Assembly: GCA_964387845.1 (NCBI GenBank) | Contig: CAYLXA010000001.1 | Span: 345,038 to 409,037 of the forward strand | DNA from: an uncultured bacterium | Lineage (GTDB): Bacteria; Omnitrophota; Omnitrophia; Omnitrophales; Abzuiibacteriaceae | Length of the DNA: 64,000 bases | Direction: 5' to 3' | Position numbers and translations under genes: made by a program | The notes under the pieces: generated by a model | What the model was told of the DNA's origin: nothing | The model's database searches: none | Seen by the model: the letters and a program-made list of their open reading frames with translations, nothing else | In this document: positions 36,315-59,506 of the stretch, in pieces | Layout: every line of letters begins with the position of its first letter | How positions within the stretch are numbered: the first letter of the stretch is position 1

Positions 36315-36388
<74 letters not shown>

Positions 36389-36544: not shown

Positions 36545-37798
36545 CTACAGGTCTAACAACTCAGACAACTTATCAATTCCCTTCTCAGCCATCGAGACAA
36601 GGCCTTCCGATTTATACATTTTCTTATAAGAACTGCCGGGATAATAAAATTCGGTGATTTCTTTGTAGGTTTTGCCGAAATCCGACATGTTTTTGGCCCC
36701 CCACTGGCAAAACCCGACACCGTGCCCCCATCCGAAACCTTCGATACGAATCTCGCCGCCTTGAAGCGACAGCTTGGCTTTTGTGCTGCGAATCACTTCC
36801 GGCCCGACGAACACACGAAAATCATTCGCCATTAACTTCAAAACGCCTTTTTCATGGTCAATCACGGCAAATTTGGCGCGCCCGGAGTCATCATAATCTC
36901 TAAATTCGATATTCGAAATCGGGCTCATGGTGTAACCGCGCGCCGCAATCTTGGATTCGATTTCCTTTAATGAAACTGAATTTTGCCAATGATAATGCTT
37001 GGTTCCGACACAATAAGGGCACGGCGTTCCTTCAAGCACTTGATTACGTTCAATCCGCCACACATTTTCCGCGCGCGTTGTGTGTCCGCCGCAGCAAGAA
37101 TGAAAAAAAGCCGGGAATATGTTTCCCTTAAAAGTGAGCACTTCCCCGCGCGTCGCATCCACCGCCATACTTGTGTTTACTTTTTCCGTGCTTTTTCCTT
37201 TATAAACCTGGCTCATGACATCCGACTCCAAAAAATAAAGATCTTTTTGTTTATCAAGCGACCGGAAAAGCGCGTAGGTCCTTGAAATAACGGCATGCGC
37301 TTTCAAAACTTCCTGTGACCACTCAGGATTCGCTTCCCAGGGCAAAACGCCCTTGATGTAATTTTCGATATCAATTTCATTGATAACCATTAGTTTTCCG
37401 CTTTGATCCCGCACGATGTGCAAATGGTCGCGGTATTCGCGGTTTTTATTGATTTTGAAATAGCCATGATCGGTGGAGATGCGGATATGCGATCCGGCGT
37501 AAAACCTGGAACCGACTTCAATGCCGCCTGCAGCTGGTTTCACCAAAACATCGGGCATCGAGTTGCCGCGCCCAATCATTAAAAAAGACGGCATTTTGGA
37601 AATTGTGTACGGAAAAGGCGTCGACAAGCTGAAACTATTTTGATCGCGCAAAATCGCGACTTTGACATAAAAAGGCTCCGGAATTGTTACGGGAAACAGG
37701 ATAGAGGAACGCAAAAGCGGGGTTTCCTGCGGAATCGTAGCGCCAAACTGTAAAACAATTAAGAAAACGGCCAGAGCTCCCTTTGCCAGTTTTTTCAT
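36545..37798 (-). CDS. SpoIID/LytB-domain protein (amidase enhancer-like)
   Basis: Signal peptide, then HAVISRTYALF...QVYKG...AVDATRGEVLTFKGNIFPAFFHSCCGGHT, characteristic of the SpoIID/LytB domain. Confidence 0.75.
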   Translation of the reverse strand: MKKLAKGALAVFLIVLQFGATIPQETPLLRSSILFPVTIPEPFYVKVAILRDQNSFSLSTPFPYTISKMPSFLMIGRGNSMPDVLVKPAAGGIEVGSRFYAGSHIRISTDHGYFKINKNREYRDHLHIVRDQSGKLMVINEIDIENYIKGVLPWEANPEWSQEVLKAHAVISRTYALFRSLDKQKDLYFLESDVMSQVYKGKSTEKVNTSMAVDATRGEVLTFKGNIFPAFFHSCCGGHTTRAENVWRIERNQVLEGTPCPYCVGTKHYHWQNSVSLKEIESKIAARGYTMSPISNIEFRDYDDSGRAKFAVIDHEKGVLKLMANDFRVFVGPEVIRSTKAKLSLQGGEIRIEGFGWGHGVGFCQWGAKNMSDFGKTYKEITEFYYPGSSYKKMYKSEGLVSMAEKGIDKLSELLDL

Positions 37799-37845
37799 AC
37801 TGACAACTTATCCGCTAAAAAGATAAATTTCAAGGCAAAAGATGT

Positions 37846-38400
37846 TTAAACTTTGGCTATGAGGACAGCGTGATGATTTTCGAGGACGTCTTTCGTTTCT
37901 TGAAGGCCAAGCTGGTGGATGGGGTAAGAACAAAGCCCGATGCACGGAAATTGATGAATGATAGACTGGCCCTTTCGTTCATATTCGCGGAGCTCGGGCC
38001 ATAAATGCGGCTTGAAACCGCTGCCGTCCCCTGCGGCTCGGACAATTTTAAATCCTTTTTGAAGCGCTTCGGCAACTTTCTTTTGATACTTTTCCAAAAC
38101 TAAATCACCATCAAAGGTTTCGCCGTCGCCATACCAGGCAATGTGGGGCACAATTTCGAAACCGCCTGCGAGTGAATGTTCATGAAAATTCCGGAGCTGG
38201 CCTGAAATAATTTCGCGCGCATGCTTGACTGTCATGTAATCGGGAACAACCCAAAAGCAAAAATTTCCCTTATCGATGCCGGCCTGCCAATACGGCAGCA
38301 ATACTTTGATAAGGTCTTCTTGGGTTTTGTAAAATTGGTAGAAATGTTTGCCAGGCGCTACATCATGCAGCAAATCAAAGTCGTCAGTGAACGGGACCAT
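37846..38400 (-). CDS. hypothetical cytoplasmic protein
   Basis: 184-aa ORF with no signal peptide. Faint resemblance to MEDS-type sensory domains (HFYQFY...GNFCFWVV), but not assertable. Confidence 0.45.
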   Translation of the reverse strand: MVPFTDDFDLLHDVAPGKHFYQFYKTQEDLIKVLLPYWQAGIDKGNFCFWVVPDYMTVKHAREIISGQLRNFHEHSLAGGFEIVPHIAWYGDGETFDGDLVLEKYQKKVAEALQKGFKIVRAAGDGSGFKPHLWPELREYERKGQSIIHQFPCIGLCSYPIHQLGLQETKDVLENHHAVLIAKV

Positions 38401-38552
38401 TTTATTTTGGCGGTTGAGAGTTTTTATCTATATTTAAATAGTAGCACTCCTAGCATCAAATACTAGGACGCGCAATAAATTATCGTAAGTTATTTATTTA
38501 CAATAGCTTACGCATACTTAAAGAACCACCACAGATACAATACAAAAACAAA

Positions 38553-38590
38553 ATGCCCGAGCTTATGAGATATAAACTCGGGCATTTGTC
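38553..38590 (-). terminator. Rho-independent terminator for the peptidoglycan-binding lipoprotein gene
   Basis: atgcccgag(N)ctcgggcat 9-bp stem. On the minus strand it is followed by uuuuguuuuugu. Confidence 0.6.
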
Positions 38591-38614
38591 AAAGACTGGC
38601 GTAGAGTTCGAAGC

Positions 38615-39070
38615 TTACTTAATCACTGATGAGCCGCTGGGAAGATAAGCCTTCAACTTATCCCAGGTTTTCTTGCCGACAACACCATCCGCATGGAGTC
38701 CGTTGTCCTGCTGAAAGCGGCGGACAGCTTCGCGGCTTGTAGAACCGATTTCACCGTCAATCGCCCCGTCATAATAACCGGCCGCTTTTAAAGCTTGCTG
38801 AATGTCGGCTGCCGGAAGTTCAAATCCGGAAGGTGTCCGGTACATAATCGATCCGCCGCGAGAAGCAGAAACAGGCTTTGAACCAAAAAAGGACGGCCGC
38901 TGCTGATTTTGAGCGTCCAACCGTGCGACTTCACCGGACAAAGTCGTCACTTGAGCTTGTAAAGCGTTGACATCCCGATTGTATTTTTTCTTGGAAACGC
39001 AGCCGGTCGTGGCAATCATGGCAACAAAGCCGACAACGAGGACGATTCGAGCGGAACGATCGAACTTCAT
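38615..39070 (-). CDS. lipoprotein with C-terminal peptidoglycan-binding (PG_binding_1-like) domain
   Basis: Lipobox MIATTGC. Coiled-coil segment, then LKAAGYYDGAIDGEIGSTSREAVRRFQQDNGLHADGVVGKKTW. Confidence 0.7.
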   Translation of the reverse strand: MKFDRSARIVLVVGFVAMIATTGCVSKKKYNRDVNALQAQVTTLSGEVARLDAQNQQRPSFFGSKPVSASRGGSIMYRTPSGFELPAADIQQALKAAGYYDGAIDGEIGSTSREAVRRFQQDNGLHADGVVGKKTWDKLKAYLPSGSSVIK

Positions 39071-40020: not shown

Positions 40021-42039
40021 ATGATCTACGACGATTTTCAGAAAAAAGCGATTGAAACGATTGATCAAAGACGCTCTTTGATCGTTTCCGCACCCACCGG
40101 CGCCGGCAAAACCGTGATAGCCGAATACGCGATCGAACAAGCGCTCGCTCATAATGAAGGCGCCATCTACACAGCACCGATTAAGGCCCTCAGCAATCAA
40201 AAATACCGCGACTTCAAAGCCAAATATGGTGACAAAATCGGCATTTTAACGGGCGACGTGTCGATCAATCCCGACGCGCCGATCTTGATCATGACCACTG
40301 AGATTTACCGCAACACTTTATTTGAAACTTCACTTTCACCGACTTCAGATCGCGCGCACGGAATAGGCGAAGGCAAGGTGAAGCCCGACCGGCTTCAAAA
40401 TACGAAATGGGTGATTTTTGATGAGGTTCATTATTTAGATGACTGGGAGCGCGGAACGGTTTGGGAAGAAGCCATCATGTTCTCGCCGCCGCATTTGGAG
40501 CTTTTGTGTTTGAGCGCCACCGTTCCCAATATTGATGAAATCACGAGTTGGATCAAAACGGTTTTAAACCGCCCGATTGAAATCATTATCGAAACTCACC
40601 GCCCCGTTCCCTTGATTCATTTGTTCCAATGCCAGGGACAAATTTTAAACAGCCAGAAGAAATTACGCGAGCAAGGCTACATGAACCGCGACGATTGGTC
40701 GCAATTCGGCGGGCGTCACGCATTCAGGCGGCGCCAGCGCGGCCACCACAACCGCAATTTCAATCACCTTCGCGCAATGCCCAACCGGATTGATAAATTG
40801 ATCGCGCATTTGAAATCAGAAAACCGGCTTCCCTGCATTTTCTTCGCGTTTGGCCGAAGGCGCACTGAAGAACTGGCGCACGAAGTGCATGTGGATTTTC
40901 TAAATGAAGAAGAACGCGGAAGAGCAGCAAAACTTTACGACGATCTCTGCATCAAATTTGGAATCGGCGATGAACAATCCGCGATGGACATGCGCGGCCT
41001 CATTGAACGCGGTATCGGATTTCACCACGCCGGCATGCTGCCCACATTAAAGGAAGTGATCGAGCAGCTTTTTACGAGCAAGCTCCTTAAAATGATTTTC
41101 ACAACCGAGACTTTCGCGCTCGGTATCAACATGCCCGCCCGCGCGGTGGTGTTTGATGAGCTCCGCAAATTCTACGGCACACATTTCGCCAATTTACGTA
41201 CGCGCGACTTCTATCAAATGGCGGGCCGCGCAGGCCGTCGAGGCATGGACAAGGAAGGTTTTGTTTATTCACGCGTCAACCCGCATCAAGTCCAGTTTCA
41301 GGAAATCGTCCGGATCATCAACGGAAAACCGGAACCCATCAACAGCCAATTCAACGCCACTTACGCGACGGTTCTCAATTTATACGCCGAACACGGCCGC
41401 GCGCTTCTTGAAATTTATCCGCGAACACTCCATCACTACCAGGCGTCCAAGAAAGGCCGCCAAAAAGCGGCGGAACTTTTGGAGCGGAAAATATTATTGC
41501 TCGGCGAAATGGATTATTTAAATGAAAAGGGATTGACCTTGAAAGGCGACTTCGCCTCCTGCCTTTACGGTTACGAACTTTTGCTCTCTGAAATGCACGA
41601 TCAAGGTTTGTTGGACGCGCAGGACCCGGCAGGGCTCGCAATTGTGCTTTCAGCGCTCGTATTTGAGCCTCGGAAAAATATTCAGCTCGATGATATGCCC
41701 AAAAAATACCGGAATTTAAATCACCATGTTGAAAGTTTCTTGCGCCGAATTCACCGGATTGAAATGAAACACCGTGTCATGCCTCTCACGAAGCAGCCTT
41801 ACTTTCATTTCGCACCGATTGTGGAAAAATGGATCCAGAAGGAAAGTTTTGACGACATTATGCGCGCAAGTCCATTGGATGAAGGTGAAGTGATTCGCTA
41901 CTTCCGGATGGTGATTCAGCTTTTGCGTGAAGTCTGGAACGCGCCGCACGCCTCAGACCGGCTCATCGCCACCGCCAAATCCGCCTTTAATCTCATCAAC
42001 CGCGACATTGTAGACGCTGAGCGGCAGTTAAGGTTATAA
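40021..42039 (+). CDS. Ski2-type DEAD/DEAH-box helicase (HelY-like)
   Basis: Walker A SAPTGAGKT, DEVH box (FDEVHYL), SAT motif, and helicase C motifs FHHAGM, QMAGRAGRRG. Confidence 0.8.
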   Translation: MIYDDFQKKAIETIDQRRSLIVSAPTGAGKTVIAEYAIEQALAHNEGAIYTAPIKALSNQKYRDFKAKYGDKIGILTGDVSINPDAPILIMTTEIYRNTLFETSLSPTSDRAHGIGEGKVKPDRLQNTKWVIFDEVHYLDDWERGTVWEEAIMFSPPHLELLCLSATVPNIDEITSWIKTVLNRPIEIIIETHRPVPLIHLFQCQGQILNSQKKLREQGYMNRDDWSQFGGRHAFRRRQRGHHNRNFNHLRAMPNRIDKLIAHLKSENRLPCIFFAFGRRRTEELAHEVHVDFLNEEERGRAAKLYDDLCIKFGIGDEQSAMDMRGLIERGIGFHHAGMLPTLKEVIEQLFTSKLLKMIFTTETFALGINMPARAVVFDELRKFYGTHFANLRTRDFYQMAGRAGRRGMDKEGFVYSRVNPHQVQFQEIVRIINGKPEPINSQFNATYATVLNLYAEHGRALLEIYPRTLHHYQASKKGRQKAAELLERKILLLGEMDYLNEKGLTLKGDFASCLYGYELLLSEMHDQGLLDAQDPAGLAIVLSALVFEPRKNIQLDDMPKKYRNLNHHVESFLRRIHRIEMKHRVMPLTKQPYFHFAPIVEKWIQKESFDDIMRASPLDEGEVIRYFRMVIQLLREVWNAPHASDRLIATAKSAFNLINRDIVDAERQLRL

Positions 42040-42041
42040 TC

Positions 42042-42078
42042 TTGAAGTCACAAACTGTGACCTCAAGATTATAAATTC
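42042..42078 (+). terminator. near-perfect hairpin immediately after the helicase stop
   Basis: tcttgaagtcacaaactgtgacctcaagatt, a 12-bp stem with one mismatch; weak T-tract. A second palindrome cggttaacacagttaaccg lies at 42097-42117. Confidence 0.45.
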
Positions 42079-42154
42079 TTAGCCCCTCCACGTACTGGAT
42101 ATTGTCCGGTTAACACAGTTAACCGAATGACCTGCTATCTAGTTTATAAATGTA

Positions 42155-43690
42155 TTAGCGACGTCCTTTATTTCGATTTCTTTTTTTGTCTTTCGTAACT
42201 TTTTCGGGTTTTGAGAGCAATTCAAAATATGGCGAAACAAAAAATAACAAAAAACTTGCAATAATTGTAAATATAAGCTCAGAAAATTTGTCCTTCAGAA
42301 GTCTTCCAAATTCATCAAATGTGAACCATCCCAAATGATTGAGTATCATAAAAATTGTAACCGTAGACAATGCACATCTTAAAAGAAAAGTGAGATATGT
42401 ATTTATAGATCTAAGACTTATTAAAGAAATCGTGAATATGCAAAATCCAATTGTAAGGAACAATATGATTAGGCTCTTTTCTGGAGTGCTTCCCCAGGCA
42501 GTGAGGCAAAACGCTATCATCACGATAGATAAAATAAGAGATTGAAGGCCAATTTCAAAATCAAAATAATATTTTTTAGCTAAAAAATAAATGCAATAAA
42601 TAAAAGAAATGGTTGATAAGATTAAGAAATATAAATTATTTGCATCGAGAATGCTAATATGCGGCTGAGCTGACCAAATTTTCAAAGAAAATTTAATAGT
42701 TAACAATAATGATAAGCTAAAAATTGAGCCAAGAAATGCATAATAGTGCAACTGCTCTAATTTTCTACTTTTGGTTCGTAAAAAGAAATTTTTATACCCC
42801 GTTAAATTACCCCATAAACATGCCAAAAGAAACGGAAGAAAAAAATCGGAATAGAATTTCTTTGATGGAACCAAGAAATCTTTGAATATTGGAATTGAAT
42901 AAACATGAATAAGCAAGAGTGTTAAAAGTGGAAAATTGCTCAACTCATAAATTTTATTTTTCAACTCTGTGTCTTTCACCAAAATATAGAGAATTCCTAA
43001 AATAAACCAATTGATGGTTAATATGCTTGAAAGCATTAGTATAATCATGTCTCCGTACAGTCCAAATCCTCCACAAGCAGAAAAAGCATAAAGAATGGGT
43101 AACAAATAATTGAATATCTTTGTTCCGCTTTCATAGATACTTAATGTGGTTATTTTAAGTCTGATCGTTTTACCTGCATAAAAATTGTCAATCAATTGAT
43201 AAAATCTGCGGAGCAAATATGACGGCAGAAGTAATGGCAATATATAGATAATGCCTTTCACAAATTCCTTATAAATATGCGTTGCAGGCATTTTATCGAT
43301 TTCGGGAAAGTATATTTCATTTGTTAAAACTGTCCAAATCAGAATCCCTACATATACAAACATTTGCGCGAAAGTTTCTATGGATTCGTAGAAATTATTT
43401 CGAAGAAACTGTTCTGAAACCAATTTATATTTTTTTAAGAACACATTCAGTAAACTGCCAACGAGAAAACACAAAGATCGATCAAGAGGAGGGATTACAA
43501 AAAGGAAAACAAAAGAAAGTGTTGCCCACCATTTAATATCTAAACCTATAAAATATACATCTCTAAAGTTATATCTAAAAAAGATAAAAATCTTATTGAA
43601 ATCCAGATATTTTGACGCAAATACATAAAAAACTATAATGGTCAGAACTATTAAATATTTTCTAATCTTGAAGATAACGTTTAGTATCAT
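42155..43690 (-). CDS. large polytopic membrane protein in a low-GC islet (Wzy/O-antigen-polymerase-like topology)
   Basis: 511 aa with at least 12 hydrophobic helices and essentially no soluble domain. Gene GC roughly 28% versus ~50% for the window. Confidence 0.55.
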   Translation of the reverse strand: MILNVIFKIRKYLIVLTIIVFYVFASKYLDFNKIFIFFRYNFRDVYFIGLDIKWWATLSFVFLFVIPPLDRSLCFLVGSLLNVFLKKYKLVSEQFLRNNFYESIETFAQMFVYVGILIWTVLTNEIYFPEIDKMPATHIYKEFVKGIIYILPLLLPSYLLRRFYQLIDNFYAGKTIRLKITTLSIYESGTKIFNYLLPILYAFSACGGFGLYGDMIILMLSSILTINWFILGILYILVKDTELKNKIYELSNFPLLTLLLIHVYSIPIFKDFLVPSKKFYSDFFLPFLLACLWGNLTGYKNFFLRTKSRKLEQLHYYAFLGSIFSLSLLLTIKFSLKIWSAQPHISILDANNLYFLILSTISFIYCIYFLAKKYYFDFEIGLQSLILSIVMIAFCLTAWGSTPEKSLIILFLTIGFCIFTISLISLRSINTYLTFLLRCALSTVTIFMILNHLGWFTFDEFGRLLKDKFSELIFTIIASFLLFFVSPYFELLSKPEKVTKDKKRNRNKGRR

Positions 43691-43706
43691 AAAAGTTTAT
43701 AATCAT

Positions 43707-44750
43707 CTAGCTCTTGTCAGTTTCATTAGATTTAGCGCGCGCGATCATTCGCTTGACCTCGGAATTCTGGTTAATTGACATTAATTTTATATCCGGATGA
43801 TCTTGAGCGAATACTCTGAAAATTTCATCCGCAAAAGCTTGGCCGATGGTTGGGACATCGGCAAAATCAAAAATCACGGTCTGAAATAACTCTACCCGCG
43901 CAAGCACTCTTTTGGCCTGAGACCTTGAAATCAGTTTGTCATTCCCATATTGAGCAAGTCTTACAGGAACCACTGTCTTCGTAAAACCATAGTCATCTCC
44001 GGAAGAAAATTTATCGAATACTTTTTTGAGAGTCCGCGAACTATGATTGCTTATTTTCATCCACACAGATGTTCCGCTTCTAAATTCTTTCTCCAAAATC
44101 CAATCTTCGGGACTGCCGAATGTGTGATTAAAATAAACTCCGCCGGATAGAATATCGAAAGAATCAAACATCCTGGATGTAAAGAAAATCCCTTCTCCCG
44201 TATGCCGTTTCGGATCTGTGGTCAGTTTGCCTTTGGAAAGTTCAAGAATTGCATGCCGTTCATCCAGCAATCCTAATTCTGTTTGGATTTTCTTAAAAAT
44301 TCCGATTCCATTATCCAACAAAGCCATTTCTGTAAATGAAGCTGTCTTTTTAATATGAGCAATGACTTCCGAGCCGCCGGAATGGTCAATCACGTTGTTG
44401 AACATTTCGGTAAACCCGTAATGCCAAATATCACGTATATTTTCCGGAATTTCGCTGAATACAGTCGAAAAATCCTTTGTCCATACAATGTCTTCCGTCA
44501 ATTCTTTTGAGACCAAATATTTTTTACGCCATTCCACAATGGGAGCCAATTTGTAAGAACTGTTCCTGGTCTGCCCAATCTGTATCAAGACATGCTCTTG
44601 TAGAAGTTTGTGGAAATGCTTATGAACCGCCTGACGCGTAATCTTAAAATGCTCTGCTGTTCGTTTGGCTATGTCAGACGGATATTTCTCAACGTTTTCT
44701 AGAATAAACCGCCTAACATCTTCTCCTCGAGCCCGAATTCTCATTTGCAA
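43707..44750 (-). CDS. HTH + GHKL-ATPase (anti-sigma/serine-kinase-like) + STAS-like (DUF4325-type) regulatory protein
   Basis: N-terminal winged-HTH-like region (ITRQAVHKHFHKLL). HATPase_c N-box EMFNNVIDHS, G1 box LDNGIGI, G2 box GEGIF. C-terminal VIFDFADVPTIGQAFADEIFRVF resembles the STAS-like DUF4325 domain. Confidence 0.65.
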   Translation of the reverse strand: MQMRIRARGEDVRRFILENVEKYPSDIAKRTAEHFKITRQAVHKHFHKLLQEHVLIQIGQTRNSSYKLAPIVEWRKKYLVSKELTEDIVWTKDFSTVFSEIPENIRDIWHYGFTEMFNNVIDHSGGSEVIAHIKKTASFTEMALLDNGIGIFKKIQTELGLLDERHAILELSKGKLTTDPKRHTGEGIFFTSRMFDSFDILSGGVYFNHTFGSPEDWILEKEFRSGTSVWMKISNHSSRTLKKVFDKFSSGDDYGFTKTVVPVRLAQYGNDKLISRSQAKRVLARVELFQTVIFDFADVPTIGQAFADEIFRVFAQDHPDIKLMSINQNSEVKRMIARAKSNETDKS

Positions 44751-44765
44751 CCTTTCCTATAATCT

Positions 44766-44817
44766 TTGTCAACCTTTGGCAGTCATATTGTCAACCATAA
44801 TACATAGATTGTCAACC
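44766..44817 (-). promoter_or_regulatory. three direct repeats of GGTTGACAA (minus-strand reading) at 21-22 bp spacing upstream of the HTH-GHKL-STAS gene
   Basis: ttgtcaacc at 44766-44774, 44788-44796, 44809-44817. Helical-turn phasing. Each contains a TTGACA -35 hexamer on the gene's strand. Confidence 0.45.
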
Positions 44818-44853
44818 AGGTATTAAAATTATATGGTAAAAATAGATAAGATT

Positions 44854-45498
44854 TTAGGCTATTAAAGAAGCGAGGAGACTGATTTTATCTATCAGAAAAT
44901 CAGGTTTTGAGGATCTAATTTCTTCTAATTTTCCGAAGCCGTAGGTGACGGCGCAAATCGGGATTTTGGCGTTTCGGGCGGTTTCGATGTCGATAGAGCT
45001 GTCGCCGATCAAGACCGCACGCTCGGCCGGAATTTTTAAATCAGCCAGAACTTTAAAGACGCCTTCCGGAGAAGGTTTTTTGGTCCGGACCGTATCGCCG
45101 CCGATTAAGATTGAGAAATATTTCTCAATACCCAAGCCTTTTAAGATCGTCCGCGAAAATCCTTCGGGCTTGTTCGTAATCACGGCCTGTTTTTTATTTT
45201 TGAAATGTTCGAGTGTATCCAAAATGCCCGGATAAAGCTTGGTGTGATCGAGCAGGTGTTCTGAGTAACGTTTCTTGAGGATTTTGAGCGCTTGATCGAA
45301 CTTATCTTCGTGTTCCTTCCCCAACAAGCCCAGTACCAAATTCTGGACGCCCTTGCCCACGCATTCGGCAATTTCAGCGCGCGATTTTTCCTTCAGGCCG
45401 AGCGTCTTGAGCATGAAGTTGCCGCCATTCGCGATGTCTTCTGAAGAATCGATGAGCGTTCCGTCCAAATCCCAAATAATTAAATCAACGGATTTCAT
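44854..45498 (-). CDS. HAD-superfamily phosphatase (phosphoglycolate phosphatase-like)
   Basis: Motif I DLDGTL, GKGV, and a KPSPEG...GDSxID motif III/IV arrangement. Confidence 0.8.
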   Translation of the reverse strand: MKSVDLIIWDLDGTLIDSSEDIANGGNFMLKTLGLKEKSRAEIAECVGKGVQNLVLGLLGKEHEDKFDQALKILKKRYSEHLLDHTKLYPGILDTLEHFKNKKQAVITNKPEGFSRTILKGLGIEKYFSILIGGDTVRTKKPSPEGVFKVLADLKIPAERAVLIGDSSIDIETARNAKIPICAVTYGFGKLEEIRSSKPDFLIDKISLLASLIA

Positions 45499-45758
45499 TT
45501 GCCGGGCTTCACGCGGTAATAAAAAACGAGGAATGTATTCACGGAGAAAAAAAGAATGTTGGAAATTCCAAACAGTTTGAACCCAAAATCAGGTGATGTG
45601 AGTGCTTTGGGCGTCATCAAAACGGTACAGAGCCATACGCCGCCGATCCAAATGAGATTCACATCATCGGAACGTTTGCGCTGGATTAAATGCCAAATCA
45701 TCGGAATATTGAAAAACGGCATTAAAAACGCCGCCCACGTGCCGATTGTGTCAAACAT
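45495..45758 (-). CDS. small 3-TM membrane protein, hypothetical
   Basis: 87 aa, three hydrophobic segments. Translationally coupled to the HAD gene (4-nt overlap). Confidence 0.4.
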   Translation of the reverse strand: MFDTIGTWAAFLMPFFNIPMIWHLIQRKRSDDVNLIWIGGVWLCTVLMTPKALTSPDFGFKLFGISNILFFSVNTFLVFYYRVKPGK

Positions 45759-48275: not shown

Positions 48276-48884
48276 ATGGCAACCCTCGTATTGGTTAGGC
48301 ACGGCGAAAGCCAATGGAACTTGGAAAACAAATTTACCGGCTGGGTCGATGTGGAACTCACCGACAAAGGCCGCGAAGAAGCAAAGAAAGCCGGCGAAAA
48401 ACTAAAAGGTTTCAAATTTGATAAGGCTTACACATCAACTTTGAAACGCGCGCAAAATACACTTGCCGCAATTTTAAAAGTCACAGGCCAGGAAAATATT
48501 CCCATCGAAAAAGACAAAGCGCTTAACGAAAGAATGTACGGCGATTTGCAGGGTTTGAACAAAGCCGAAACCGCAAAGAAATACGGCGACGAGCAAGTTC
48601 ATATTTGGCGCCGAAGTTACGACATCGCGCCGCCAAACGGCGAAAGCTTGAAAGATACGGCTGCGCGCACGCTTCCTTATTTTCAGCAAAAAATCATGGC
48701 TGATGTGAAAGCCGGCAAAAACATCATCGTCGCCGCGCACGGCAACAGTTTGCGCTCAATCGTCATGGATTTGGACAAACTCACGAAGGAACAGGTTCTG
48801 GAACTTAATCTCGGAACCGGCATTCCGATCGTTTATGAGTTTGACAAAAGTTTGAAAATTCTCTCCAAAAAAGAACTTTCTTAA
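48276..48884 (+). CDS. gpmA: 2,3-bisphosphoglycerate-dependent phosphoglycerate mutase (short form)
   Basis: LVRHGESQWNLENKFTGW, a histidine phosphatase core with RHG and a catalytic His later. Confidence 0.9.
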   Translation: MATLVLVRHGESQWNLENKFTGWVDVELTDKGREEAKKAGEKLKGFKFDKAYTSTLKRAQNTLAAILKVTGQENIPIEKDKALNERMYGDLQGLNKAETAKKYGDEQVHIWRRSYDIAPPNGESLKDTAARTLPYFQQKIMADVKAGKNIIVAAHGNSLRSIVMDLDKLTKEQVLELNLGTGIPIVYEFDKSLKILSKKELS

Positions 48885-50986
48885 TTTTTCAACGACGGTA
48901 GTTCGAGCCTTAAAACCGGCCTTAACGTGAATGCTCTGTGGTTTCCCGGTTTAATTTCGGCCACATTTGCTTTCAGCGGCAAAATGGTTTCCGATTTTCC
49001 CTTTTTCCGGAAATAATAACCAAGCCTTCCTCTGATCGGCCCGATTTCTCTCAGGACCATTAAAATATTTTGATCAAGCATAACCATAATTGCATTTTGA
49101 TCGATTTGGTTCACTGTCAGAGAGTACGAATCCTGAGAATGATCAAAGTAGCTCAAAACCGATTTTTTACTGATGTCTCCGTTTTCAATGATGTAAACAT
49201 AAAACCTGTTTTCGTTTATTCCCGTTAGGATGAAATTACCGGAATCTTGGTAAGCCAAAACAAGCCCCGCAGCCTCTGTATTTTCAAATTTGACCGTAAA
49301 ACCGACAGGCTCATAAGATTTTTTCCCTAAAAAAATCGGAATTTCAACGGGAGGCGCAGTTTTATCGTTAAAATCATTAAAAATTTCAGAAAATTCCTCG
49401 AAAATCATATTGTCACCCATTGAAAATTCATCCGGGGAAAGATGTAAGTCATTGATAGTATTAAAATTAGAATTCCATTCAGCCAACCACGGTTTCTCAT
49501 CCTGTGCAATGAAAACATAAAGCGCTTTTTTTTCTTCCCCGACGCACACATGACGCTGCAAAAGATAGTTCGGGATTAAATCAGAAAAGGAACGTTCGAA
49601 CGAACCGGCATAGCAGTATTGCGGGTTTTGTTTCATAAAATCCGCGATTTGAAAAGTCAGAGTCGAAACAATGTTGTTATAATTTTTTCGAGGCTCTAAT
49701 GTGCGCTGAAGATTTGAATAATTAAAAGGAACAGGCCATAAAATGACAAATGCAAACGCCGCCATGGGCAGAAATTGAGGAAAATATTTCCCGGCACTCA
49801 TACGATTCTGAAGCCAGCGGATCGACAAAGCGGAAAGAATTAATAAAAAATAACTGGAAAGATAGAAATAATAAGTCGCTGACTTCACATAATCGGTTCC
49901 GCGAAGCGACATGCGCCCCGCCGCAATTCCGAAAAGCATGAAGCCCAGATAAACAATTGAAATGATGCTTACAAAATGGCCGGCGGATTCTTTTTTATCT
50001 CGATAGCACAAAAACAAATAGAAAAATGAACCTAAAAGGAAAAAAAGAAAAATAAATCCGAATGTGGCGATTAACTCATTCGGTAACGCGGTAAAATCCC
50101 AAACCGCCTTTTTGAAATTATTAATGAACCGAATATCAAAGAAAACCGGAATTAAAAATGCAGCTGCCGTCAGGCCGCTGAAAGTAATGATGTTTGAAAA
50201 AACAGACCGCAAACTCAAAAAATCCGGATTGTCGACAGGGCCTAGCAACGACGGCGGCATCGCAATAACAAACTCGGCGAGACCGAGAATAAAATATAAC
50301 GCTGCCGGAAAAATAAAAATTAGCCGTTTTTCTTTTTGGCTTAAAAATTCCGCATGCGATTTCGGGAAAATAATCATTAGAAAAATTCCGCAAATGGCCC
50401 ATGCATAGAAAAATGACTCGTGAAACAAATTCGCCAAAGAAAAAAACAAAACAGCCCGTAACAGGCGGGATTTCCGGTGCACTGCTTCGCTCATCCGGAT
50501 CATCCAATAAAGCCCTAAAACAAAAAAAATCAGGCCCAGAAGATACGGGTTGATGTGACGCCAATAAACCATTTCGAAACCCGGATACTGAAATAAAAAT
50601 GCCAGAGCACATAAACCGCCGATGAGTGCACCGCACAAGTGCGCGGTCAAAAGATACAATACGAACACGCTCGCTGCATGCAGCAGGACACTCAAAATTC
50701 CCGCAACCAGCATGCTGTGCCCATAGAAAATATCTAAAACCGCATGATATAAATAAAAACCCGGACGAAAAAGAAAATAATCGCCCGGGCGGTTAAAACT
50801 GGAGTGTGTGTAAGTCAGCGTATGCCAGAAAAAATCCCAATCGGATTTAACAAGCGCGCGTTCCGCAATCAAGTTGATATGGTCGTCGCGGGGAATATCG
50901 ATAAGGCCGTTCCGGTAAATCAAAAACGAGCAGGTGGTAATGAAAATAAAAATCAGGATGTTCTTGGCAAGCAGCCGGGTCATCAT
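48881..50986 (-). CDS. large polytopic membrane protein with C-terminal soluble domain (GT-C/ArnT-like fold?), hypothetical
   Basis: 701 aa. About 12 transmembrane helices in the first ~430 aa, then a beta-rich ~270-aa domain. 4-nt overlap with the addA stop. Confidence 0.5.
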   Translation of the reverse strand: MMTRLLAKNILIFIFITTCSFLIYRNGLIDIPRDDHINLIAERALVKSDWDFFWHTLTYTHSSFNRPGDYFLFRPGFYLYHAVLDIFYGHSMLVAGILSVLLHAASVFVLYLLTAHLCGALIGGLCALAFLFQYPGFEMVYWRHINPYLLGLIFFVLGLYWMIRMSEAVHRKSRLLRAVLFFSLANLFHESFFYAWAICGIFLMIIFPKSHAEFLSQKEKRLIFIFPAALYFILGLAEFVIAMPPSLLGPVDNPDFLSLRSVFSNIITFSGLTAAAFLIPVFFDIRFINNFKKAVWDFTALPNELIATFGFIFLFFLLGSFFYLFLCYRDKKESAGHFVSIISIVYLGFMLFGIAAGRMSLRGTDYVKSATYYFYLSSYFLLILSALSIRWLQNRMSAGKYFPQFLPMAAFAFVILWPVPFNYSNLQRTLEPRKNYNNIVSTLTFQIADFMKQNPQYCYAGSFERSFSDLIPNYLLQRHVCVGEEKKALYVFIAQDEKPWLAEWNSNFNTINDLHLSPDEFSMGDNMIFEEFSEIFNDFNDKTAPPVEIPIFLGKKSYEPVGFTVKFENTEAAGLVLAYQDSGNFILTGINENRFYVYIIENGDISKKSVLSYFDHSQDSYSLTVNQIDQNAIMVMLDQNILMVLREIGPIRGRLGYYFRKKGKSETILPLKANVAEIKPGNHRAFTLRPVLRLELPSLKN

Positions 50987-57440: not shown

Positions 57441-57947
57441 CTACTTTTTATACGTTGCAAACGAACTTTCAGTTTCCCAGACCGTCACGGAATGAACCGG
57501 AAATTTCTGGGACACTGCATAATCATAAATCAATTTGGCGAGGGCTTCGGCGGTCGGATTGATCGGCATTGTGTAAAAAACTTCCTTTTTTGCCTTTAAA
57601 TCGGGAATGATGGGGTCATCTTGATGTAAAAGCAGTTTATGATCTAAAACATCATTGATCCACGCTTTCATGACCCGGCCGATATCATGAAAGTCATAAA
57701 CCATGCCGCGCTTATCCAATGATTCGGAATGAAGCTCCACTTGAGCACGCGCGTTGTGACCATGCAGATTCCGGCATTTACCTTCGTAGTGAATTAGCCG
57801 GTGGCCGTAGCAGAAGTGAATTTCTTTTGTGACTGTGTACATAAGACAATAGGTTAAATAAGCGCCTTTGCCGTATTTTACCTTAAATCCATCTGAGTGG
57901 AATAGATGAGTTTTAAGTGTTGAATAGAACCGCATATTTTTTATCAT
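57441..57947 (-). CDS. queD: 6-carboxy-5,6,7,8-tetrahydropterin synthase (QueD/PTPS family)
   Basis: TKEIHFCYGHRL and CRNLHGHNA match the CxxxHGH zinc-site pattern. The true start may be the internal MYTV (57842); the N-terminal extension is unusual. Confidence 0.75.
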   Translation of the reverse strand: MIKNMRFYSTLKTHLFHSDGFKVKYGKGAYLTYCLMYTVTKEIHFCYGHRLIHYEGKCRNLHGHNARAQVELHSESLDKRGMVYDFHDIGRVMKAWINDVLDHKLLLHQDDPIIPDLKAKKEVFYTMPINPTAEALAKLIYDYAVSQKFPVHSVTVWETESSFATYKK

Positions 57948-58001
57948 AAGTCATTTATTTATAATGGGTTATGAATATTTTAACTAAAATTATGTCAAAA
58001 T

Positions 58002-58030
58002 TTGACAAACCCCATTCACCCAGCTAAACT
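58002..58030 (+). promoter_or_regulatory. sigma70-like promoter for the riboswitch leader
   Basis: TTGACA (58002-58007), 17-nt spacer, TAAACT (58025-58030). Confidence 0.45.
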
Positions 58031-58057
58031 TTTGTTGTAATTCAAAACAGTTCTTTT

Positions 58058-58145
58058 TAGGAAACGATAAAGGTAAACCAATCGAAAGATTGGGGCGCAA
58101 AGCATGAGGTCCTTAATGGATGGCTCGGCTACCGAAATTCTGAAA
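58058..58145 (+). promoter_or_regulatory. c-di-GMP-I (GEMM) riboswitch aptamer
   Basis: AGGTAAACCAATCGAAAGATTGGGGCGCAAAGC closely matches the conserved P1 core of the Vibrio Vc2 aptamer as I recall it (GGCAAACCAUUCGAAAGAGUGGGACGCAAAGC), including a GNRA loop. The 3' closing GGCTACCGAAAT matches GGUUACCGAUGG. Confidence 0.75.
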
Positions 58146-58174
58146 GTGCAACTGAAAAAATCAAGTTGTGTTTT

Positions 58175-58206
58175 CGCGACCCAATTTTTTGGGTCGTTTT
58201 TTTTTG
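58175..58206 (+). terminator. intrinsic terminator (riboswitch expression platform), ending 8 nt before the pilX-like ATG
   Basis: cgcgacccaattttttgggtcg stem-loop followed by TTTTTTTTT. Confidence 0.75.
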
Positions 58207-58213
58207 AGCAAAA

Positions 58214-59506
58214 ATGGTGAGACAAATGAAGAAAAAAATCATGAGGAAGAAGGCAAGGTTAAACCAGAAAGGCGTAGCGCTGATCTGGGTTTATCTGCTT
58301 TCTGCCTTTTTAACCACCATGATTTATAGTTTTTATAGTTTGAATATTTGGCAAACCAGAACCGATGTGGTGGACTCATCGGCTGAAATTCAAGCCTTTT
58401 ACTTGGCGGAAGCAGCGGTCGATGACATGTACAAATATATTAATGATCAAACAGAGGACGGCGCCGCAATTAGCACCACGATAAATCGCGGGCCTTATAA
58501 CCTGGGAACTAGCGGAACCTATTCGTCAACTTATGATCCAACGAACAGCATTGTTAATGCAATCGGAACTGTTTCTATCGGAAGCGGGACAATTACCAAG
58601 AAACTCTTCACAAAAATTGTTATCGGTACCCCTTATGATATTCCACCGGGAGTTCAAGCCGGCATTACTGCAGGTTCTGCAGTAGAGTTGGCCGGACTCT
58701 TGGTGGTTGACGGTCGCAATCACGATGCTGCCGGTGAAGCCATTGAAGACGGAATCCCGGGCGTTGTTTATTATGAAAATTCGGATGGCCTTACTTACGA
58801 TGATTATGTCGGCGTCGGCGGGCCCTCCACGTTGCCCAACGAACCCGGTAACCCTATTGATCCGACATCAATATCGCCAACGCCCTCGAATGCAAATTTG
58901 ACATCGCCGGAAGCCGTCTTCGGACTTTCAAACGGTGATTTGGATGCTTATAAACATTCCACCGCACCCACTTCGCCGGTGGACGGAGTTTTTTATTATG
59001 AAGCACCGCTCGGGAGTGGCGGAACCATCGATATTGACTTGGGCAGTTCGGAAACTCCGGGTTCAGGCGTACTTGTTCTTGACAACCTTCAAAACCCAAC
59101 TGCAACCGTTAATTTGACAGGTACTTTTAATGGATTGGTTATTGTTCGGGACGGCAATTACAATCTGGCTGCTGACACTTTGGTGGCTGGTGCGCTCGTG
59201 AATGTTTCAGCAAGCGCTTCCACAGTTGTTTTGTCCGGCCCTGCTTACGATCCGGATGGGAAAAATGGTGTAGCACGAATTTTGTACTGTGTCCAATGCA
59301 TCGAAGCAACAGAATTGCCCGAAGGGCTTAATAATTCTACCGTTGCGGGGATTGGTTCTTGGGTTAATTTCAGAAATGCAACAACATCCAATCCTCTTGT
59401 TTACATACCAGCATCAACACCAGGCGGAACCACCGGAACCGTCGCTGGTGGCGGCACTCTCGGAGGCGGCGGAGCCATGGGTGCATCCGGGCTTAGCGGA
59501 AAATAA
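58214..59506 (+). CDS. PilX-N-domain protein (type IV pilus minor pilin / tip-associated, adhesin-like)
   Basis: N-terminus QKGVALIWVYLLSAFLTTMIYSF resembles the PilX_N pattern (RG-x-ALI-hydrophobic). The rest is G/T/S/N/P-rich with no transmembrane helices; 430 aa. Confidence 0.55.
   Translation: MVRQMKKKIMRKKARLNQKGVALIWVYLLSAFLTTMIYSFYSLNIWQTRTDVVDSSAEIQAFYLAEAAVDDMYKYINDQTEDGAAISTTINRGPYNLGTSGTYSSTYDPTNSIVNAIGTVSIGSGTITKKLFTKIVIGTPYDIPPGVQAGITAGSAVELAGLLVVDGRNHDAAGEAIEDGIPGVVYYENSDGLTYDDYVGVGGPSTLPNEPGNPIDPTSISPTPSNANLTSPEAVFGLSNGDLDAYKHSTAPTSPVDGVFYYEAPLGSGGTIDIDLGSSETPGSGVLVLDNLQNPTATVNLTGTFNGLVIVRDGNYNLAADTLVAGALVNVSASASTVVLSGPAYDPDGKNGVARILYCVQCIEATELPEGLNNSTVAGIGSWVNFRNATTSNPLVYIPASTPGGTTGTVAGGGTLGGGGAMGASGLSGK

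Follow-up and report, generated by a model that had tools for sequence, protein, structure and literature searches.

Within a 64,000-nucleotide (nt) stretch of DNA from an uncultured bacterium of the Abzuiibacteriaceae (Omnitrophota; contig CAYLXA010000001.1, positions 345,038 to 409,037; hereafter the window), a low-GC insert at positions 42040-44853 separates the gene for a Ski2-like helicase from the gene for a HAD phosphatase. The insert carries two open reading frames (ORFs) in the same orientation on the minus strand. One of them encodes a polytopic membrane protein of 511 amino acids (aa) (42155..43690) and the other one, listed as 43707..44750 with a TTG start, encodes a regulator that unites a winged helix-turn-helix (wHTH), a GHKL ATPase and a STAS-like domain. 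The regulator belongs to a very large, horizontally spread family whose members almost always occur solo, and together with the repeats in front of it the gene forms a self-contained cassette. We consider it probable, at roughly 0.65, that the regulator is an ATP-dependent autorepressor cassette lying beside an unrelated membrane gene, and that the insert is a composite rather than a two-gene system.

Both the base composition and the comparison with relatives mark the insert as foreign DNA. The GC content is 29.7% for the membrane gene (GC3 28.9%) and 40.8% for the regulator gene, as compared to 45.9% for the whole window, and the two genes are the lowest two among the long ORFs of the window (n=31, mean 46.7% +/- 4.1%). 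A sliding GC profile, which stands at 0.45-0.52 in the flanks, falls to about 0.40 over the regulator and to 0.29-0.32 over the membrane gene. The compositional discontinuity, which the initial annotation had estimated by eye and for which it had proposed a calculation, is thus present. According to Pfam, the flanks encode a Ski2-like DEAD/DSHCT helicase on one side and a HAD_2 hydrolase followed by Maf on the other side. For the comparison of insertion sites, loci encoding relatives of the helicase were fetched and the DNA downstream of the helicase gene was inspected. In the locus L085 (helicase 67% identical), the site is empty, with 9 nt between the helicase stop and the stop of the HAD gene, which is convergent. 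In L086 (66% identical), a gap of about 420 nt lies between the helicase and HAD genes. The closest relative, L084 (95% identical), has another insert of 5.9 kb at the same junction and contains neither of the two window genes. A blastn comparison of the window with L084 revealed that the backbone homology stops at 42039, which is the helicase stop, and restarts at about 44933 inside the HAD gene. Therefore, the variable segment comprises positions 42040..44853, from the helicase stop to the HAD stop. The compositional break and the empty or differently filled sites in relatives are what is expected of an integration hot spot. Horizontal acquisition is confirmed, and the 2.8-kb segment probably brings together two foreign genes of separate origin at this chromosomal site. 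The initial annotation had described a horizontally acquired low-GC two-gene islet between a helicase and a HAD phosphatase, and in this respect it was right, down to the exact boundaries.

The insert of L084 contains a single minus-strand ORF (L084:6112-11850) for a 1912-aa multi-pass protein that has a GT2 glycosyltransferase domain at residues ~244-510 besides about 12-14 hydrophobic segments and is related to neither window gene. This shows that the junction accepts varied, partly envelope-related cargo. No tRNA gene is located at the insertion site, the nearest one being a tRNA-Arg(CCG) gene at 36315-36388. A search for flanking direct or inverted repeats marking a transposon or an att site gave only short chance-level matches, and the Rfam scan of the islet yielded far sub-threshold matches only. 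A repeat search uncovered an inverted repeat with 19-nt arms (95% complementary) at 42034..42074, which lies at the insert edge, overlaps the helicase stop codon and is possibly a bidirectional terminator. A second hairpin-forming inverted repeat is present at 42107-42127 (CGGTTAAC-aca-GTTAACCG). Both hairpins sit in the 115 nt that separate the stop codons of the helicase and membrane genes. A T-run follows neither of them, and they may represent terminators or else sites of recombination at the insert edge.

The regulator most likely starts at the ATG at 44744 and not at the listed TTG because the ATG is preceded by the Shine-Dalgarno sequence GGAAAGG and the resulting 345-aa protein (43707..44744, minus strand) matches the database entry P0001. 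It consists of an N-terminal wHTH domain (about aa 1-68, 44541..44744) with the recognition helix ITRQAVHKHF, a GHKL ATPase or serine-kinase-like domain (about aa 84-235, 44040..44495) and a STAS-like DUF4325 domain (about aa 256-343, 43716..43979) with an invariant SRSQAKR motif at its front. The C-terminal domain is a clear member of the DUF4325 family (PF14213; E = 1.3e-13, 50.9 bits versus a cut-off of 23, residues 278-332), and all 120 listed regulator homologues carry PF14213. The HATPase_c_2 match of the window regulator (19.3 bits) stays below the cut-off of 27.4, and many homologues have precomputed matches to PF13581 or PF02518. The regulator has a Bergerat fold with N, G1 and G2/lid motifs, and alignments of 30 and 40 homologues uncovered an invariant GHKL core consisting of GFTEMFNNvIDHS, DxGxGIF and KGKLTTDP..HtGEGIFFtSR. 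The conserved residues are E113 and N117 in the N box, D144, G146 and G148 in G1, and K171-G-K173, G183 and G185 in the lid/G2 region. At the N-terminus, Pfam detects only weak matches to HTH_20 and HTH_11.

An AlphaFold2 (AF2) model based on a 40-sequence alignment (mean predicted local distance difference test score (pLDDT) 81, predicted template modelling score (pTM) 0.71) shows a helix-helix-helix-wing N-terminus (H-H-H-strand-strand), a central alpha/beta domain with a disordered lid at residues 173-183 and a C-terminal beta-alpha-beta-alpha-beta-alpha arrangement (E256-260, H274-280, E289-293, H302-315, E320-324 and H328-343). In a fold search, the best matches of the regulator were SpoIIAB, RsbW and SiaB, with UsfX also among the top ones. 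The N-terminal part matched winged helices of the MarR/ArsR/PadR type and the C-terminal part the STAS domains of the stressosome (7b0u) and of SLC26 transporters. A search of PDB chain sequences with the family profile gave no significant match. Moreover, phrog_3364 matches residues 34-238 (E = 4.8e-9). Thus, Pfam, the AF2 model, the fold matches and the invariant motifs agree on the architecture that had been read from the sequence at the outset, namely an HTH, an anti-sigma-type GHKL kinase and a STAS-like domain.

Since SpoIIAB, RsbW and UsfX are among the top fold matches and the C-terminal domain is STAS-like, the protein might be seen as a classical partner-switching anti-sigma factor that is fused to its antagonist and acts on a sigma factor encoded elsewhere. 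We regard this as highly improbable. The protein has its own DNA-binding domain and, as described below, a cognate-looking repeat array. The islet contains only its two genes, and neither a sigma factor nor a PP2C phosphatase is among the 25 listed families that recur across 146 neighbours of regulator homologues. Furthermore, the patchy, horizontally transferred distribution of the family is ill-suited to a core sigma-factor circuit. Finally, STAS helix 2 of the model (residues 302-315, QAFADEIFRVFAQD, after the invariant G301) contains no Ser/Thr in the window protein or in the family consensus, so that a phosphorylatable residue appears to be missing at the start of the helix, where Ser58 of SpoIIAA and Ser54 of CapS sit. 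This position was mapped by the AF2 secondary-structure register and by the SpoIIAA and CapS positions given in the literature; an hhalign comparison of the regulator family with the B. subtilis SpoIIAA sequence was not significant (probability 3.5%). The SRSQAKR motif (residues 273-279, about 43908-43928), with which the first helix of the STAS-like domain begins, is invariant in 30/30 diverse homologues. The motif and the likewise invariant and basic KGK of the lid together make up a candidate ligand-binding or alternative phospho-acceptor site.

Directly upstream of the regulator gene, a putative operator/promoter array occupies positions 44745..44818 on the minus strand. It consists of three exact GGTTGACAA units and a degenerate, in-phase GGTTGCAA copy that abuts the ATG. 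The GTTGACAA cores start at 44816, 44795 and 44773, and the spacings including the GGTTGCAA copy are 21, 22 and 22 nt. Thus, three or four direct repeats of GTTGACAA(T) cover the promoter and the ribosome-binding site of the regulator gene. No other exact GTTGACAA site and no other phased array was found on either strand of the window. The array recurs across the family. In a count of coding-strand copies with up to one mismatch in the <=200 nt upstream of the regulator homologue, at least two copies were present in 55/77 and at least three in 48/77 homologous loci, and successive repeats were spaced by 21 or 22 nt in 104/115 cases. Three control regions contained 0-1 copy, the exception being two loci in which the same region has 2 copies on the opposite strand. 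Across the loci, the consensus of the repeat unit is a/t-A-g-GTTGACAA-t, and in many loci the last copy, which is often degenerate, overlaps the Shine-Dalgarno sequence and the start codon. With this phasing, one copy's TTGACA is placed 17-18 bp upstream of the GACAAT in the following copy, which corresponds to the layout of -35 and -10 promoter elements, and a promoter consensus scan of the window also chose TTGACA-17-GACAAT. The base following the repeat is a T in 31/36 second copies, in 22/36 first copies and in 16/36 third copies, and this excess is consistent with the second copy serving as the -10 element.

Recognition helices other than that of most loci go together with other repeat cores in the same phased layout. 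For instance, the helix SRQAV(H/N)KHL is found with the core GTTGACAA in most loci, while SRTAANRYL goes with GTTACAG / GTGACAG (L064 and L080), SRSAISKHL with AGTTGTAAAT (L065), SRQAVFKN(I/L) with AAAGTTTAC (the Nitrospira group) and SRQATSAWL with CTTTACGTT (L168 and L169). Such covariation is as expected if the repeats are the regulator's own operator. In the locus L031, the array is expanded to five to six CTTGACAAT repeats with a period of about 22 nt, located about 130 nt upstream of the regulator start; array copy number therefore differs between hosts. A search of the literature for this motif gave nothing but primers and oligonucleotides, and the conserved phased cis element of the regulator family is reported here as new.

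The regulator family is large and horizontally spread. A protein-database search with the regulator yielded at least 8000 clusters, and the best 120 listed homologues are 66-82% identical, with source names that include FCPU426, Burkholderiales and Acidobacteriota. In the databases, the homologues are named "DUF4325 domain-containing" or "STAS-like domain-containing protein". The 80 genome loci that were analysed come from Gamma-, Beta-, Alpha- and Deltaproteobacteria, Planctomycetota, Nitrospirota, Acidobacteriota, Elusimicrobia and others, and they also include Dehalococcoidia, Ignavibacteria, Bdellovibrionales and Peribacteria. The GC content of the regulator homologue is below that of the flanks in 70/72 loci (mean -10.7 points, Wilcoxon p = 2e-13); thus, the status as a low-GC islet is a property of the family. 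A blast comparison with the FCPU426 locus L001, whose regulator is 76% identical, aligned only positions 44816-43728, that is the repeats and the gene, and revealed no synteny, so that the conserved part ends at the regulator stop codon. The regulator is therefore a self-contained cassette of about 1.1 kb (44818-43707), consisting of repeats plus gene, which is likewise reported here as new. No conserved terminator was detected at the cassette's 3' end (4/79 loci versus 8/240 control segments). Two cassettes occur on separate contigs of one metagenome-assembled genome (L014 and L018, CAYXEY01, Planctomycetaceae); they are 58% identical to the query and have three GGTTGACA repeats each. Thus, genomes can carry more than one cassette copy.

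The surroundings of the cassette vary from locus to locus. Among 146 immediate neighbours, no Pfam or PADLOC family occurred more than three times, and the three occurrences came from one syntenic Methylophilaceae group. An all-against-all clustering of the flanking ORFs gave a widest real cluster that was present in only 5/80 loci and includes an IS1-like transposase. The identified neighbours comprise DFP, KdpA, PDH-E1, FBA aldolase, TsaD, CitMHS and CLC transporters, AcrB and UPF0182, and most of them look like housekeeping genes. Among the close homologues, P0003 (82% identity) is flanked by DUF1016 and a FAD-binding enzyme, P0004 (80% identity) by DoxX and P0009 (72% identity) by an MFS transporter. 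An ORF with a weak DDE_Tnp_IS1 match adjoins the cassette upstream in L003, L053, L065, L069 and L071, and this IS1-type neighbour may be a hint to how the cassette moves. Another 23 regulator loci were found on predicted viral contigs of IMG/VR, many of them close to a contig edge; tblastn searches of the GenBank phage and PLSDB plasmid collections yielded no regulator homologue. A CitMHS transporter with TrkA_C, the sole recurring transporter type, is the convergent downstream neighbour in two unrelated hosts belonging to the Planctomycetota and the Bdellovibrionales (L055:7038-9026 and L077:5044-6858, both on the minus strand), which is probably a coincidence.

From these observations we infer the following mechanism. 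The wHTH domain would bind the three or four direct GTTGACAA(T) repeats, which lie two helical turns apart. The bound repeats would at once form and cover the regulator's own promoter and ribosome-binding site, with the -35 element provided by the TTGACA of one repeat and the -10 element by the GACAAT of the repeat that follows, and the regulator would thereby repress itself cooperatively. ATP binding or hydrolysis by the GHKL domain, or phosphotransfer, might act with the STAS-like domain in switching DNA binding upon a signal. The regulator would thus be the single-polypeptide counterpart of CapK and CapS, a kinase-repressor pair (Chambers et al., EMBO J 2026; PMC13373217). The membrane gene would be of separate origin and would receive read-through transcription from the regulator promoter.

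Several points weigh against the autorepressor cassette as described. The covariation between recognition helix and repeat core is confounded by shared ancestry because related sequences are not independent, and the repeats could be tandem promoter elements only. The apparent lack of the phospho-acceptor serine depends on the register of the AF2 model (pLDDT 81). Moreover, a cassette made of promoter plus gene holds no recombinase that would account for its spread. Finally, the 16-nt gap and the common orientation would put the membrane gene under the control of the regulator in this genome, and a local functional pairing is conceivable. In both cases known for the membrane family, an HTH gene directly precedes the membrane gene, which could hint at an obligatory repression of a toxic product (n=2).

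The membrane gene (42155..43690, minus strand) encodes a near-orphan protein with about 12-14 hydrophobic segments and no soluble domain. The initial annotation had called it a giant polytopic membrane protein; the polytopic nature holds, and "giant" overstates 511 aa. In 300 shuffles of the same 1536 nt, the longest ORF reached 145 codons; therefore, the 511-codon ORF is not due to chance. The protein has no match in Pfam, NCBIfam or PADLOC and only a chance-level match in PHROG (E = 0.08), and a word-indexed protein search returned only the protein itself. An exhaustive phmmer search of 1.84 billion representatives uncovered a single relative, P0122, which is 495 aa long and 34% identical over the full length (E = 4.6e-68). 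In predicted loops, the two proteins have the long motifs YFPxIDKMP, YxLIDxxxAGK and KNFFLRTxSRKLxxLHYYxFLGSI in common, which indicates that the family is real and under constraint. The P0122 gene comes from an AT-rich contig of 1.8 kb (30-36% GC), where it follows a gene for a 65-aa XRE-type HTH protein (HTH_3) at a distance of 15 nt. Thus, as in the window, a membrane gene directly follows an HTH gene; the difference is that the XRE/HTH_3 protein lacks an ATPase and a STAS domain, and the comparison comprises two cases. A two-sequence profile found nothing new in a 5.8-billion-protein database, among PDB sequences or on viral contigs. The single-sequence AF2 model of the membrane protein (pLDDT 44, pTM 0.24) is unusable for a fold search.

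Wzy-type genes typically have a very low GC content, are extremely divergent and encode polytopic proteins, and Wzy-type enzymes have a large periplasmic catalytic loop. The membrane gene fits the first three of these features, and the closest relative of the window encodes the multi-pass GT2 glycosyltransferase at the same site. Therefore, the protein could be an envelope-polysaccharide enzyme, such as the Wzy-like polymerase suggested initially, a ligase or a flippase, in a variable cell-surface locus, with the regulator as an unrelated neighbour. The searches make this assignment very unlikely. No Pfam family matched either of the two family members (P0121 and P0122) at E <= 10, there was no HMM match to Wzy, O-antigen ligase or EpsG, and the family profile had no match among PDB sequences. 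The islet contains no other polysaccharide genes and is not surrounded by a polysaccharide cluster. The two longest loops are rich in Lys/Arg and therefore probably cytoplasmic, as opposed to the periplasmic catalytic loop of Wzy-type enzymes, and the unusable structure model lends the assignment no help. The idea that the membrane protein is a fragment or relative of the 1912-aa GT2 protein of L084 was rejected since the two proteins show no similarity.

The regulator and the membrane gene are 16 nt apart on the same strand, and no promoter or terminator was detected between them; therefore, the membrane gene is probably transcribed from the regulator promoter in this genome. An alternative to a chance neighbourhood is that the regulator is a one-component CapKS-like controller, which keeps a potentially toxic membrane effector of the abortive-infection or exclusion type repressed until stress occurs, and that the cassette captures varied cargo. 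Besides the tight spacing, this is in line with the P0122 gene trailing an HTH repressor-like gene by 15 nt, with the position of the islet in a hot spot with variable cargo, with the 23 homologues on predicted viral contigs, many close to a contig edge, and with the fact that CapK/CapS precede many different immune operons (PMC13373217). We nevertheless consider such a controller-effector module unlikely. A relative of the membrane protein was present in none of the 80 regulator loci from genomes and in none of the viral sequences that gave the 23 regulator loci, and three extra regulator contexts have other downstream genes and no membrane-family copy. In the 80 loci, downstream genes on the same and on the opposite strand are about equally frequent, and the co-oriented ones are unrelated, for instance UPF0182, a P-type ATPase and a DFP flavoprotein; the further contexts contribute an MFS transporter and DoxX. 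Defence-type neighbours are sporadic, with single PADLOC matches among the 146 neighbours, and no family of PADLOC-DB v2 matched either window protein or P0122 at E <= 1. Furthermore, the GC contents of the two genes differ by 11 points, and no copy of the operator repeat precedes the membrane gene. The initial annotation had proposed a two-gene sensor/effector module, possibly of a defence type, and had itself listed, as part of what would refute the idea, that homologues of the two genes never co-occur elsewhere; this is what the neighbourhoods of the loci covered revealed, and neither the module nor the defence-type context was upheld. The linkage of regulator and membrane gene is thus local and not a property of either family, and the adjacency is most likely incidental or the result of a recent capture. 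For annotation, the lesson is that low-GC single-gene islets should not be taken as partners of the adjoining gene. The membrane protein belongs to a family of which only two members are known, and its structure is a candidate for prediction when further relatives become available.

Apart from the insert, a few features of the backbone were recorded. An 87-aa ORF without a Pfam match (45495-45758, minus strand) separates the HAD gene from Maf. Since it is conserved with synteny in L084, L085 and L086 (63-87% identity), it is a real small backbone gene. Upstream of the helicase, the minus-strand region 36545-39070 encodes SpoIID, MEDS-domain and PG_binding_1 proteins, as annotated on the identical Logan contig L081. 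Milder GC dips were observed at about 49000-50000 and 57500-58500 (0.39-0.40 in 1-kb steps of the profile), and the former falls within a 701-aa ORF (48881..50986, minus strand).

Among the known systems, CapK/CapS comes closest to the regulator. CapK (HTH-STAS-GHKL) is switched on by single-stranded DNA and transfers phosphate to a conserved serine in helix 2 of the STAS domain of CapS (STAS-wHTH), a dimeric repressor whose binding sites, TTAA palindromes, lie in its own promoter and in the promoter of the immune operon located downstream (PMC13373217). The GHKL and STAS domains of CapK together constitute the sensor, and VapKSC is a toxin-antitoxin variant that follows the same logic (PMC13373217). 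All 443/443 capK genes are followed by capS and 348 of them by an immune operon (PMC13373217). The window regulator likewise uses the three domain types HTH, anti-sigma-type GHKL kinase and STAS for the control of transcription, it is also encoded on accessory DNA and, as its upstream repeats suggest, it probably regulates itself, as CapS does by repressing its own promoter. In contrast to the two proteins CapK and CapS, it is a single chain with the order wHTH-GHKL-STAS-like. Whereas capK always occurs with capS, the window family is solo with unrelated neighbours: a gene for a STAS-wHTH protein is neither adjacent in the window nor recurrent in the 80 loci, and the neighbours, with their sporadic PADLOC matches, do not form an immune or stress operon downstream. 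The putative operator consists of direct repeats phased by 21-22 bp and not of TTAA palindromes. Moreover, according to the model, the window family seems to lack the conserved Ser/Thr at the acceptor position of STAS helix 2. The earlier statement that no characterised system has the pairing seen in the window still holds; CapK/CapS, published in 2026, is a close functional analogue of the regulator.

The partner-switching modules SpoIIAB/SpoIIAA and RsbW/RsbV, and also SiaB/SiaC, differ from the window regulator in that its domains are fused with a DNA-binding domain in one chain; the canonical phospho-serine appears to be absent, and the gene is horizontally mobile and solo. Other DUF4325 proteins, to which the C-terminal domain belongs, are short and single-domain, for example those coupled to PIN/VapC genes (PMC5499597). 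In the searchable literature, three papers mention DUF4325 and none characterises it. The regulator would thus work like CapK/CapS and the partner-switching systems, without being a member of either.

A bolder reading, which we put forward as decidedly doubtful, is that the whole wHTH-GHKL-STAS-like family is a mobile single-chain stress sensor combining CapK and CapS. Its operator would be made from the repeated sigma-70 -35 consensus TTGACA, it could, in addition to autorepression, bind similarly built strong promoters in trans, for instance on invading DNA, and it would serve as a portable inducible controller of whichever gene had come to lie behind it, such as the orphan membrane gene in the window. 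In that event, it would represent a new class of ATP-gated one-component regulator or defence-related element in many phyla. If the regulator is an ATP-gated autorepressor, as we prefer, it would extend the partner-switching logic to a one-component, horizontally mobile format and provide a compact inducible switch. The pairing with the membrane gene is probably not meaningful in itself, and the targets for follow-up are the regulator family and its cis element. The family comprises at least 8000 clusters in multiple phyla and is yet almost unstudied, and its three or four phased repeats are a simple, conserved and easily testable element. The regulator unites in one chain the domain types that CapK/CapS uses for activating immune operons after DNA damage.

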